Positions 58,639-61,975 of a stretch of 64,000 bases of DNA are shown here, in pieces. The DNA comes from an uncultured delta proteobacterium. Lineage in GTDB: Bacteria; Desulfobacterota; Binatia; UBA9968. The DNA is taken from NCBI GenBank assembly GCA_963728565.1, contig CAVSLC010000028.1, forward strand, positions 1-64,000. Reading direction: 5' to 3'. A model generated the notes under the pieces. The model saw only the letters and a list, made by a program, of their open reading frames with translations. It searched no databases and was not told where the DNA came from. Numbering within the stretch: the first letter of the stretch is position 1; the number at the start of each line of letters is the position of its first letter. Made by a program: the position numbers and the translations under genes.

Positions 58639-59658
58639 ATGCAGACTGTAGAGAATGAACGAGGTTATGCGATTATTTTCGTAACCGTCATGATTGTTCT
58701 GCTCCTGATCATGATCGGCATGGCGTTAGATAGCGGGCACCTCGCATACGTCAGATCACAGGGGCAGCCGGCAGTGGATGCGGCGGCTCTGGCGGCGGCT
58801 TCCGCAATACCAAGCGGAAATTGGTCAACCGTTACTAATCGGGCGGCCAAGTTTAATCCGGGCGGGAGTAATCCTGGTACCGGCAACAATTATCTAGACA
58901 GTCCTAATAATGCGATTGATCAGCAAAACGTGACGCTGGTGAAGTATGACAATGCGACTGGGGAATTTACCACCTCCGGGGTCAGCATCGCTAATGCTAA
59001 TGGAGCGCGCGTCGCGTTGGAAAACAAGAACCCTCACGGCGGCTCTGCGGGAGAAGCGATGAAGTCTCCATTGTTCTTGACGCCTCTGCTCAATCTATTC
59101 GGTCAAACCACAGAAGGCACTGCTAACGTGAGCGTCAGCGCGGTTGCTGTCAACCAGGCCCTTCCAGCACTACCAATTGTCGTCGTGGAAAGTGCCTGCG
59201 GTATGGATACAACGCTTGACTTACGGACGGGAGGTAAAGGAAATGCCGGCTGGGAAACTTACCAAATTGAGAACGCAAGCACAGATGAGGTCCGTGCCCT
59301 ATTTGAGAAGCTGCCCCAGTGCGCCGGCCAGCCGGCGATCGATGTCGGCTACTGTGGAAATATCGCCAATGGGGTGAACGCAACGATCTTTAATGAGCAC
59401 CTAAAGCCTATGTTCAAAGCTGACCCCAACCGGTGTTACTTAATTCCAGTAATCAAGAATGGCGGCAACTTGAACCAGTGCCAGATGATCACAGATTGGG
59501 CACGTTTCTGCCCCGATAAGGGGAATAACACAGCAGACGCATTCCCCGGGCAGGGTCAGCTCAAGGGCAGAGTTACTTGCGGCCAGAGTGTTCACGAGTC
59601 ACGGGATAGCCAATGTTTTGTTCAACGCCTGGTGCGAGATAAAACGTCAGGTATGTAA
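58639..59658 (+). CDS. tadG: TadG-like Flp pilus-associated protein
   Basis: ERG + TM, G.A.D.G, Q.A.DAAALAAA; Cys-rich C-terminal domain. Confidence 0.75.
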   Translation: MQTVENERGYAIIFVTVMIVLLLIMIGMALDSGHLAYVRSQGQPAVDAAALAAASAIPSGNWSTVTNRAAKFNPGGSNPGTGNNYLDSPNNAIDQQNVTLVKYDNATGEFTTSGVSIANANGARVALENKNPHGGSAGEAMKSPLFLTPLLNLFGQTTEGTANVSVSAVAVNQALPALPIVVVESACGMDTTLDLRTGGKGNAGWETYQIENASTDEVRALFEKLPQCAGQPAIDVGYCGNIANGVNATIFNEHLKPMFKADPNRCYLIPVIKNGGNLNQCQMITDWARFCPDKGNNTADAFPGQGQLKGRVTCGQSVHESRDSQCFVQRLVRDKTSGM

Positions 59659-59690
59659 GGATTCACGGGCGATTGTGGTCGGGGGTCACT

Positions 59691-60222
59691 CATTAAAAGC
59701 TTGTCAAGCTCTCGTTTAGATGTACCTCTTCACGGGAGGCGTGGGGTTAGTCTAATCACCCACACTGCCGTTGTTTGCGACCAGAGTTCTGTTCGGTCTC
59801 GGTCGACAATTCGGTCAGTCACTCATCCGTGCTCTTCGGCACATTATTGAATTCGACTCTGGTCTCCTAATCAAATCTTCGGATCTCCGGTTTAGGCCGG
59901 GACCATGACCCCAGGAGGATGACCAGAGACGTCGGTAACTTTTTTTCGCCCAGGTACAGCCATAAGTCGTTGCCGAGGTCTGTGACGCTTAAACGACTCA
60001 CTTCGCTTTAGCATGGCGTAAATGACATCGAAAAATAACTTTCCAACGCCGCTTGAGTCACAGGTACAGTAACCTTGCTGGTTGTCTTTCCCTGTCGATC
60101 TTTCTTTACCACCACGGCCTTGCGCTTCCTCAGGTCCACTCCTACATACTCTTTCATGCTGCACCTCCTTTAGGCTTAGGCGACTCCTCACAGAATCAGC
60201 CTGGTATAATGTTGGTCCATTA
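59691..60222 (-). mobile_element. Internally deleted IS110-family element (mini-IS110)
   Basis: SD AAGGAGG + MKEYVGVDL (DEDD N-terminus, ATG 60157) fused out of frame to a C-terminal KL..DVIYAMLK..E.F (stop 59892). CATTA at both ends. TTGACA in the right end and CATTAT in the left end. Confidence 0.8.
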
Positions 60223-60302
60223 GAGATCGTCACCGCCCATTTGCGAGGTGCAGCTCACATCCCTAGCTTTTCATTTAATCAAGTCTTGCGGTGCCACCCT
60301 GT

Positions 60303-60680
60303 TCAAGTTGTTTGCTCGATCTGTTTGAGTCTGCGGCTCACCGTTTCATCGTGAACGCGCGAATGCGCGGCAATCTCATCAAGCCCGTACCTACGATCGT
60401 ATGCCTCGGCTATCGCTCTGTTTCCGCTTTGCAAATATCCGCGCCAGCGTCGGCTTGGCAGCTCTTAACTGTACCGCGGAAATTCTTTAAGATTCCGATT
60501 CGGAGCTGCGTGCTTCTCGATAATGATTCGCTCCCTAAATAGATCTCCCTTTTAGCTCTTCCTATGGCCGCCGCGCCGCTCCGTCTCTGACGAGTTCCGG
60601 GACTGCTTCCTCCGCTTGTGCCGTCACTTGCCGAATTGCGCGAGGATCCGATCGGTGCTTAGAATTCTTCCCGGGCCACT
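60303..60680 (-). pseudogene. Remnant of the C-terminal half of a RAYT-like (Y1 + HTH) transposase
   Basis: Across frameshifts and stops: EF.STD.ILAQFGK, VRDG..RRP*EELKG.IYLGSES, AIAEAY...YGLDEIAAH..VH.ETVSRRLK. Confidence 0.65.
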
Positions 60681-60737
60681 CAGCGGTCTCTCTGTAACTG
60701 CTCCATTTCCAACTCTGAGGCTCCATATTCCACTCTC

Positions 60738-61745
60738 CTATCTGAACATTTCCCTGAACTTCTTGCTCCAGCTCTCCAGCTCTTCTTTACTCGGCAGCCG
60801 CATTACGACGATTTGATCGTCTTTCACATCTTTTTTGAACTTGTGGTCGGCCTCGGGGTGGAACACGTACTCGCCGTAATTGCCGAAGATGGTTTGCGCT
60901 TCAGGGCCAACAAAAAAATCCGTGAACAGGCGCGCCGCATTGGGGTGCGGCGCTTGCCGGTTGATCGCCACGAAGCTCAGCGAGGACAGGTATTTGTTCA
61001 TGCGCACGTACTCGATCGGTCCCGGATACTGGTATTTATCTTTGATGTAGCCGAGCGCAACCTGCACCTCTCCGGAAGTCAGCGGCTGGATCGTATCCGC
61101 AAGGCTCCGTCCGACCCGCGGATCGTTTTTCGCCCAGCCTTCAACGACCTGCAGCCATTTCGGGCCGATGAGCTTGTCGAGATTGAGAACGAACTGCAGT
61201 GTGGTCACGTGGATCCCAGGATTGGCCATGCCGAACTTGCCCTTCCACTTGGGATCGACCATTTCTTCCCAGGTCTTCGGCGCCTCCGATGTTTTCAAGA
61301 GCTGATGGTTGAAGTTGATGCCGTATGGGAGCACGCGCCAGGGCGTCATCTTTTTGTCCGCGTCGAGAAACTGCTTGGGATAGCCTTTTGCCGCTGGTGG
61401 CTCGAATACAGCAAAGAGATTTTTCTCATCGAGGCTGGCCATGACGACTTCATTGCCGAGGGTCACGTCGAATCCTGGCTTGCCCGCCCGCGCCTCGGCT
61501 AGCGAACGATTGATCAGCTCAGTCGCGTCGCCGCGCCAGTGGCGCAATTTGACGCCGTATTTCTTCTCGAAGGCGTCGCCGATGGCTTTCGCTGAACTGA
61601 CGGTGATGGCGCCGTAGAACATCACCTCGCCTTCCTTCTTCGCCGCTTCGATCAGCTCCGGGGTGATCTGCGCCACAAGGGTGATAGGTAACGTAAAAAC
61701 AAGCACGGCGATGGTCAGCGCCGCCCGCAAAACACGGTGCAACAT
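60738..61745 (-). CDS. ABC substrate-binding protein (Fe-type)
   Basis: Signal peptide; AAKKEG.V.FY, PKTWEE..DPKWKG, APHPNAARLF.DF. Confidence 0.85.
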   Translation of the reverse strand: MLHRVLRAALTIAVLVFTLPITLVAQITPELIEAAKKEGEVMFYGAITVSSAKAIGDAFEKKYGVKLRHWRGDATELINRSLAEARAGKPGFDVTLGNEVVMASLDEKNLFAVFEPPAAKGYPKQFLDADKKMTPWRVLPYGINFNHQLLKTSEAPKTWEEMVDPKWKGKFGMANPGIHVTTLQFVLNLDKLIGPKWLQVVEGWAKNDPRVGRSLADTIQPLTSGEVQVALGYIKDKYQYPGPIEYVRMNKYLSSLSFVAINRQAPHPNAARLFTDFFVGPEAQTIFGNYGEYVFHPEADHKFKKDVKDDQIVVMRLPSKEELESWSKKFREMFR

Positions 61746-61865: not shown

Positions 61866-61975
61866 GGGCCGGTCCTGCGATACCACATTGTTCAATTCCT
61901 GTGCTCGATGTTTGAGCCTGCGGCTCACTGTAGTTTAATGAAATCCAAAGGGGCGGCAATCTCATGAAGGCGGCG
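61866..61975 (-). pseudogene. Second RAYT-like HTH 3' remnant
   Basis: About 90-bp degenerate direct repeat of 60292-60383; reads RLHEIAA...TTVSRRLK. Confidence 0.55.

Follow-up and report, generated by a model that had tools for sequence, protein, structure and literature searches.

What remains of an insertion sequence once the gene for its recombinase has been lost, and can such a remnant still move? The question is raised by a locus near the far end of the window (the whole stretch of 64,000 nucleotides that was analysed, from an uncultured member of the Binatia), where the beginning and the tail of an IS110-type transposase gene lie next to each other on the minus strand. The answer favoured here, with a probability of about 0.88, is that positions 60278..59686 of the minus strand are a non-autonomous derivative, by internal deletion, of an IS1111-type (IS110-family) element of about 1417 bp. 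The assignment to the IS1111 type is a putative one, made from the architecture of the element and the motif GLVPSIYSSG of the parental protein. An earlier reading of the locus, made from the sequence only, had already recognised an IS110-family (DEDD) element that has lost its recombinase by an internal deletion and kept both ends, and in this it was right; the borders that it gave are corrected below, and the guide RNA of the right end, more informative than any other part of the locus, had escaped it.

Full-length parents and the ends of the element

In its own genome (G000), the 532-bp unit delimited by the sequence-only reading has one other match, on contig C15, which falls into two blocks; once the query was lengthened, window 60284..60028 corresponds to C15 23354-23612 (93% of 259 nt) and window 60027..59682 to C15 24432-24780 (97% of 349 nt). 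The search covered 61 genomes, namely G000 and 60 relatives, 14 of which gave DNA matches; full-length copies were found only at G000:C15:23361-24776 and on contig C13 of the relative G005, the two being 96% identical over 1425 nt. Of the search that had been suggested for parents and copies, the first part thus succeeded, with C15 and G005 as full-length parents; no further 532-bp copy was found.

The G005 copy carries an intact ORF of 362 aa with the motif GLVPSIYSSG. Its product matches NF033542 ('IS110 family RNA-guided transposase') at 227.8 bits, the cut-off being 140, and, among PDB entries, the transposase of IS621 over the C-terminal domain (E 3.6e-15). Relative to G005, the C15 copy shows a frameshifting deletion of 4 nt in the transposase gene, one extra C at the left junction and an insertion of TTT between TTGACA and the right inverted repeat; its frameshifted ORF matches PF01548 (E 4.5e-21) and PF02371 (E 6.8e-15). 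The IS110 pair of Pfam domains (DEDD_Tnp_IS110, PF01548, and Transposase_20, PF02371) is therefore found in the parents, and the window copy is counted as a member of the family because of its 93-97% DNA identity to them. A second, distant IS110-family transposase gene is also present in G000, at C15:35474-36466 (27% identity over 331 residues).

When the query was given longer flanks, BLAST homology to the full-length copies continued out to 60284 and 59682. Ten independent left ends were aligned, seven of them from full-length copies (five metagenome contigs besides C15 and G005) and three from deleted ones; all ten open with TTAA(A/G)T, corresponding to window 60278, right after a flank ending in TGA, save for the one extra C of C15, and a left-end nhmmer profile matches the window at 60278..60129 (E 4e-38). 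On the other side, 17 distinct right ends close as ...TTGACA-N-CTTTTCATGAGTGA or a close variant, in most cases followed by CCC(C); TTGACA is invariant in all 17 and stands 16 nt from the terminus in 16 of them. Since the ten left ends and the 17 right ends agree, the element of the window extends from 60278 to 59686 on the minus strand and measures 593 bp, with the flanking TGA present on both sides and counted once. Its features are the following:

60279..60287, minus strand: left half of the target, AAGACTTGA, which is flank and not element, ending in the shared TGA
60158..60278, minus strand: left end and 5' non-coding region of 121 nt, starting with TTAAAT (alignment of ten left ends)
60274..60266, minus strand: left subterminal inverted repeat ATGAAAAGC, within the left end
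60029..60157, minus strand: first 43 transposase codons, MKEYVGVDL...ESYFS (Pfam PF01548 positions 1-38, sub-threshold)
60027..60030, minus strand: deletion junction, where about 820 bp of the transposase gene are absent (BLAST against C15)
59892..60027, minus strand: C-terminal tail of the transposase, ..VIYAMLKRSESFKRHRPRQ...GHPPGVMVPA and stop (tblastn to residues 311-362)
59778..59924, minus strand: structured RNA resembling seekRNA/bridge RNA (covariance model R1)
59912..59906, minus strand: 5' strand of the internal loop, GGGGTCA, complement of TGACCCC at the right junction
59879..59868, minus strand: 3' strand of the internal loop, AAGATTTGATTA, equal to the left junction 60287..60276
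59826..59818, minus strand: second domain, ATGAGTGAC, identical to the right terminus
59708..59777, minus strand: variable hairpin region, then a conserved GAGGT(G)C box (alignment A2)
59702..59707, minus strand: TTGACA, a -35-like hexamer (right-end alignment)
59692..59699, minus strand: right subterminal inverted repeat, CTTTTAAT in the window copy and CTTTTCAT elsewhere (right-end alignment)
59686..59691, minus strand: right terminus GAGTGA, its TGA being the 3-nt overlap common with the target (junction comparison)
59682..59685, minus strand: right half of the target, CCCC, flank, the complement of GGGG on the 5' side of the internal loop

With lengths of 8-9 bp, the subterminal inverted repeats are short; ATGAAAAG(C) is separated from the left end by 4 nt and (G)CTTTTCAT from the right end by 6 nt. 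The 3' non-coding region has 206 nt (59891..59686), as against 121 nt for the 5' one (60278..60158). In the GAGGT(G)C box, alignment A2 gives A for the window copy where G is usual. Both ends are kept, and the transposase gene between them is gone.

The left end holds a further conserved pair of sequences: GCTGCACCTC (60254-60245) is perfectly complementary to GAGGTGCAGC (60171-60162), which spans the ribosome-binding site just upstream of the ATG. Both are nearly invariant across the ten left ends, and the right end contains a conserved box, GAGGTGC, that is related to them. To judge from this complementarity, their pairing may act as a translational lock.

The guide RNA and its target sites

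The structured RNA of the window scores 170.7 bits with covariance model R1 (E 1e-34), and full-length copies score 177-178 bits; the right end that contains it is conserved as DNA in many relatives with no transposase gene beside it. Across 17 distinct copies, a structure of five helices pairs in 97.3% of 475 cells, compared with 26-39% when the partners are slid by 1-3 columns, and 4 of the 28 pairs show changes on both sides (15 cells), which was reached by none of 500 shuffles; these figures are biased in favour of the structure, it having been derived from the very sequences on which it was tested. Folding of the single sequence gave z = -1.92, and an Rfam scan of 59000-61000 at E <= 10 returned nothing but three chance-level matches to unrelated families. 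One hairpin of the window RNA is weakened by a private G>T at 59808, in a column that is otherwise invariant.

The internal loop matches the element's own flanks, the target junction in the window being AAGACTTGA | CCCC. GGGGTCA, complementary to the top strand, is placed 5' of AAGATTTGA, which has the sequence of the top strand itself. The 3' loop strand AAGATTTGATTA reaches from the left half of the target across the TGA to the third base of the element, and agrees with the left junction at 11 of 12 bases in the window and at 12 of 12 in G005. In the second domain, ATGAGTGAC equals the right terminus at 9 of 9 bases, the chance expectation being 0.31 per window. The 5' strand of the donor side, ATTCAAT, corresponds to the left end, TTAAAT, at six of seven positions, with one mismatch, and the deviating left end of locus L050, TTAAGT, is accompanied by no compensating change in this strand.

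In a comparison over 10 nt, no other guide fits the left flank better than the element's own in five of nine elements, and in the other four one does. The dinucleotide before TGA covaries cleanly in all nine (CC with CC in 5/5, YT with YT in 4/4), which amounts to some two or three independent events, and the covariation of guide and flank appears to be only partial. For the left flank of the C15 copy, ATACTTGA, the guide found in the L043 subfamily is a better match than C15's own. Furthermore, the first 30 nt of the RNA (window 59924-59892), GGGGTCA included, overlap the last 10 transposase codons (GHPPGVMVPA), and these codons are therefore under double constraint.

To judge from these comparisons, the window copy keeps a complete guide RNA, whose helices pair and whose loop strands match the flanks. 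The parent has a gene for a 362-aa DEDD/RuvC-like RNA-guided recombinase, with a seekRNA/bridge RNA encoded downstream. By analogy with ISEc11 and IS621, its movement would proceed by circle formation and RNA-guided insertion: the element would excise as a circle and insert without duplicating bases, the internal loop of the RNA pairing with both target strands at AAGAYYTGA|CCCC sites.

The target sites themselves are uniform. Among 16 distinct right flanks, 12 start with CCCC and three with CCC(T/G/A); ten left and 16 right junctions share TGA|...|CCC(C), and unoccupied sites have a single TGA, insertion thus taking place without target duplication. The site in the window, if uninserted or restored, would join ...AAGACTTGA to CCCCCGACC.... 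The empty site that had been predicted was GGGGTCACT-CATTA-GAGATC, whereas real unoccupied sites read AAGAYYTGACCCC. An unoccupied site, AAGACCTGACCCC, lies in a paralogous repeat on contig C378 of the relative G001; this paralogue is better preserved, and a single frame reads through it and ends ...GGCAAGACCTGACCCC. It is because of this intact frame that the left flank of the window element (60279-60720) can be linked to a Y1-transposase gene (IS200-like, RAYT-like), of which it is a degenerate 3' fragment with an HTH tail. The 43-aa ORF of the window flank gave no BLASTP match to the Y1-transposase protein of contig C7.

That contig of G000 carries, at C7:33787-34805 (positions 488-1506 of locus L074), a unit of about 1 kb with 28-nt inverted repeats that are 93% complementary, enclosing a 319-aa ORF with a Y1_Tnp domain (PF01797) and a DnaA_C-like HTH domain. 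Each inverted repeat holds a perfect, unoccupied AAGATTTGACCCC, which makes two sites, and the insertion in G005 is bordered on its left by the same 19 bases, TTGTCAACAAAAGATTTGA. From the perfect sites in the C7 repeats and the shared G005 flank it follows that the element targets the ends of another repeat element. The stop codon of the C7 ORF is the TGA of its AAGATTTGACCCC target.

The 3' repeat of the Y1-transposase-plus-HTH type (WKWSSYR...VSRRLKQIEQT) is also found at window 61872-61969 and at G000:C1:8606-8712. Within the same genus, nine matches to this repeat occur in G005 and five in G004, and the end of the repeat bears the insertion target. No orthologous empty site was obtained, the two flanks lying on different contigs in G005, G004 and G006, and G000 has no DNA match to what adjoins the tad-side flank in G005 and G004.

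Loss of the transposase gene, mobility and rival readings

The two protein pieces pointed out by the sequence-only reading, an ORF starting with MKEYVGVDL and the peptide DVIYAMLK, are real, and both align to full-length IS110-type transposases. The first opens a 49-aa ORF at 60157..60008 of the minus strand, and DVIYAMLK... is read in a different frame. Taken alone, the 49-aa ORF stays below the Pfam threshold (PF01548, E 0.06, 13.6 bits, cut-off 29), and the other two frames of the window element gave no Pfam match. It is the 43 N-terminal codons and the C-terminal tail, about the last 44 codons, that align to the full-length copies; past the 43 codons the N-terminal reading continues, out of register, as far as the stop at 60008, the two pieces being mutually out of frame. 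The break lies at 60030/60027, close to the join first placed near 60035, and the bases common to both of its sides are at most 1-2.

Relative to the C15 copy, 819 bp are absent (C15 23613-24431), and 825 letters relative to a contig of the public run X2; transposase residues ~44-317 of 362 are missing. To judge from the Pfam domain span (5-147) and the position of GLVPSIYSSG, the deletion would have taken three of the four catalytic acidic residues together with GLxPxxxxSG, the first aspartate remaining. In the favoured reading, an illegitimate deletion of about 820 bp would have stripped the recombinase from the parent and spared the parts that act in cis: the left end and the guide RNA are entire, and the right terminus, the TTGACA box and the pair of subterminal inverted repeats are all present.

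In principle, such a copy would need only a recombinase supplied in trans. Mobilisation in trans had been proposed for it, and it could be, with the ends corrected, an active MITE-like element that arrived as a mini-circle with the help of a trans-acting recombinase and its own guide RNA. The copy keeps more than was needed by a mini-IS of ISEc11, for which the left 50 bp and the right 46 bp sufficed when transposase and seekRNA were given in trans, according to the available text of PMC11187229. It sits in a near-cognate target, its guide RNA scores nearly as well as those of full-length copies (170.7 against 177-178 bits), three independent deletion copies keep the left end plus some 37-43 codons, and a precedent exists in MITEPpu9, as far as the accessible part of PMC12288879 describes it. 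This possibility is nevertheless an unlikely one. The copy is the only one in G000, no other with its deletion was found among the 61 genomes searched, and a 40-nt word specific to its right end had 0 exact matches in metagenome contigs; several near-identical copies at different sites, the mark of a MITE-like element, are thus not what was found. Moreover, the only cognate transposase gene in the G000 assembly, a metagenome-assembled draft with 80.55% completeness and 5.84% contamination, is that of C15 with its frameshifting 4-nt deletion, so that the proposed mobilisation is left with neither a second copy nor an intact cognate transposase in the assembly. The copy also carries private substitutions at two positions where the other aligned copies do not vary, 59694 within the right inverted repeat and 59808 within the hairpin, and both perfect AAGATTTGACCCC targets on C7 are empty. 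Most likely the window copy is an immobile relic.

The relatives without a transposase gene bear on the same question. Among 45 non-duplicate right-end instances, seven are full-length and three, namely the window copy, L021 and L050, combine an internal deletion with a complete left end; about 25 of the 45 have neither left end nor transposase gene with at least 447 nt of upstream sequence present, and the rest are cut by contig ends. The share of such orphans is inflated twice, by searches seeded on the right-end sequence and by short-read assemblies, which lose multi-copy elements. With the covariance model, 17 out of 123 genomes from the order gave matches, 25 in total and confined to one family (16 of 122 without the unpublished genome G076, which has one weak match), and a cognate transposase at E <= 1e-60 is present in three of the same 123 genomes. 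Transposase-less pairs at least 93% identical with different flanks on both sides, which would also be expected of an active element, were looked for and none was found; dispersal of the orphans is therefore not demonstrated.

The loci with a right end only are L008-L013, L022, L024, L035, L038, L039, L042, L044-L046 and L051-L053; some of them, such as L008/L044, are free of private changes and represent the same locus in two assemblies. L021 and L050 are independent deletion copies with the same architecture as the window copy. The three deletion copies belong to different subfamilies, and their left breakpoints fall at codons ~37-43 (window 60030; L050 ~405-440; L021 ~1655-1690). In L050 the first 43 residues are fused in frame to the C-terminal domain, the whole being about 155 aa long. 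Among metagenome contigs, L047 matches L036/L040 at 100% identity through the right end and the flank beyond it; its sequence departs from theirs 38 nt upstream of the RNA, with no transposase gene after that point. L047 represents either a chimera of the assembly or a variant of the same site with a deletion. Deletions made by the recombinase were considered as the origin of the right-end-only modules, several of which begin after '..TGA|C', and were rejected on account of 5' limits that vary widely.

It is conceivable, if quite improbable, that the guide-bearing remnants (the window copy, the other two deletion copies and the numerous right-end-only modules) form a persistent, parasitic 'guide-only' layer, in which orphan seekRNAs would be taken up by the recombinase that rare autonomous copies provide. 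The excess of orphans, their RNA structure fully conserved, over cognate genes (25 matches in 17 of 123 genomes, against three) and the clustered breakpoints are consistent with such a layer. If it existed, orphan guides could bring about their own movement or give the recombinase new target sites.

As for the deletion itself, it is very unlikely to be an artefact, that is, the product of a metagenome assembler that skipped the interior of a full-length locus. The assembly is a metagenome-assembled draft (80.55% complete, 5.84% contamination), and the junction is reproduced by no contig in four public runs: contigs of X1 and X15 depart from the window at 60027 and continue into a full-length interior, and the related population in X1, which has the right junction in common (329 nt, 8 differences), shows only the full-length interior, at similar depth. 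These runs were available as contigs only, with at most 0.25 of the sampled words present, and contigs drop rare variants, so that the absence of the junction is weak evidence, compatible with an in-place deletion or, less likely, with an assembly error. Against an artefact stand breakpoints that share at most 1-2 nt, with no repeat to mislead an assembler, substitutions proper to the window copy in both arms, and comparable deletion copies, L021 and L050, in two other independent assemblies. RNA-library contigs cover portions of both ends in full-length relatives, by which transcription is not demonstrated.

Finally, the borders first proposed, a 532-bp unit bounded by TAATG whose circle, closed through one TAATG, would assemble a promoter TTGACA-17-CATTAT, are scarcely tenable, since full-length homologues have other boundaries, 56-62 nt farther left and 5-9 nt farther right, and the ten left ends place the border at TTAAAT. 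Different boundaries in full-length homologues had been named in advance as the observation that would count against that unit, and for the borders this is what was found. Both pentamers do exist on the minus strand (60222..60218 and 59695..59691). The left one sits 56 nt inside the left end, in the conserved GGTCTCTAATGGACC block; the right one, which falls within the right inverted repeat, is created by a C>A change at 59694 that is private to the window copy, a position that is C in 16 of 16 other aligned copies and in contigs of three public runs, the parents carrying TCATG at this end. TAATG is moreover locally frequent, occurring 11 times in the surrounding 3.3 kb and three times on the element's own strand within the element.

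The promoter TTGACA-17-CATTAT falls because the TAATG pentamers are not the true ends, the junction that it needs being the wrong one, and CATTAT is not conserved across the left ends. The true circle junction would bring together TTGACA, 16 nt ending in TGA, and TTAAAT (...GAGTGA|TTAAAT...), TTAAAT being found in nine of the ten left ends. A junction promoter TTGACA-16-TTAAAT is thereby predicted, and fits those described for ISEc11 and others in the available part of PMC11187229. As a -10 box, TTAAAT agrees at four of six positions, lacks the A at position 2 demanded by the promoter scan and is formally weaker than CATTAT. A scan of the integrated form for sigma-70-like promoters found none.

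Known systems and the place of the Binatia element

The nearest counterparts are the IS1111-family elements ISEc11, ISPa11 and ISKpn4. As far as the available text of Siddiquee et al. (2024, PMC11187229) goes, IS1111-type elements are marked by a longer non-coding region downstream of the transposase gene and by subterminal inverted repeats of 'sufficient length', and in the seekRNA of the family the match to the top strand lies 5' of that to the bottom strand. The Binatia element resembles these three in its longer 3' non-coding region and subterminal inverted repeats, in an RNA with the same order of matches, which overlap in the target with no bases added, in the -35 box of its right end and in the GLxPxxxxSG of the parental protein. 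It differs from them in its host lineage (Candidatus Binatia), in the shortness of its inverted repeats (8-9 bp), in the overlap between the first 30 nt of the RNA and the last 10 transposase codons and, for the window copy, in the lack of the transposase gene.

With IS621 (PDB 8wt6) the parent shares a related recombinase (E 3.6e-15 over the C-terminal domain), and with the bridge RNAs of IS621 and the IS110 type a two-domain RNA in which one strand reproduces the left half-site together with the overlap. Another two or three bases agree with the DNA of the partner, like the 'handshake guides' described in the accessible part of PMC13626964. Unlike in IS621, the RNA lies 3' of the gene and not 5', the order of the guide strands is reversed, and recognition of the donor by the second loop is only partly supported.

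As regards the target, IS4321 and IS5075 insert into the terminal inverted repeats of Tn21-family transposons. The Binatia element likewise has its preferred target within the terminal inverted repeat of another mobile element, which in this case, unlike those transposons, is a unit of about 1 kb encoding a Y1 (IS200-like) transposase with an added HTH domain.

According to the available part of PMC12288879, other IS110/IS1111 members target REP sequences. Among them, ISPpu9 of Pseudomonas putida, with its MITEPpu9, is like the Binatia element a repeat-targeting member of the IS110 family that leaves transposase-less modules with a small RNA, and the modules of the MITEPpu9 type have been proposed to ride on the transposase of ISPpu9 (same source, same part). 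The small RNA of ISPpu9, Ssr9, is described there as dispensable for transposition and not as a guide, unlike the Binatia pieces, which carry the guide itself. For the window copy, moreover, unlike MITEPpu9, neither circles nor multiple copies are shown.

The window copy is thus an ordinary, internally deleted relic of a known type of element, with its borders corrected, and the case illustrates how borders deduced from short direct repeats can mislead. Guide modules without a transposase gene are common in draft genomes of Binatia, to which a bias of short-read assembly may contribute. To the catalogue of RNA-guided recombinases the locus adds an IS1111-type element of Binatia with a readable guide RNA, target and ends, together with a natural copy that has lost the recombinase and still bears its own guide. 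The point of more general use is the preferred target, which lies inside the inverted repeats of RAYT-like elements.
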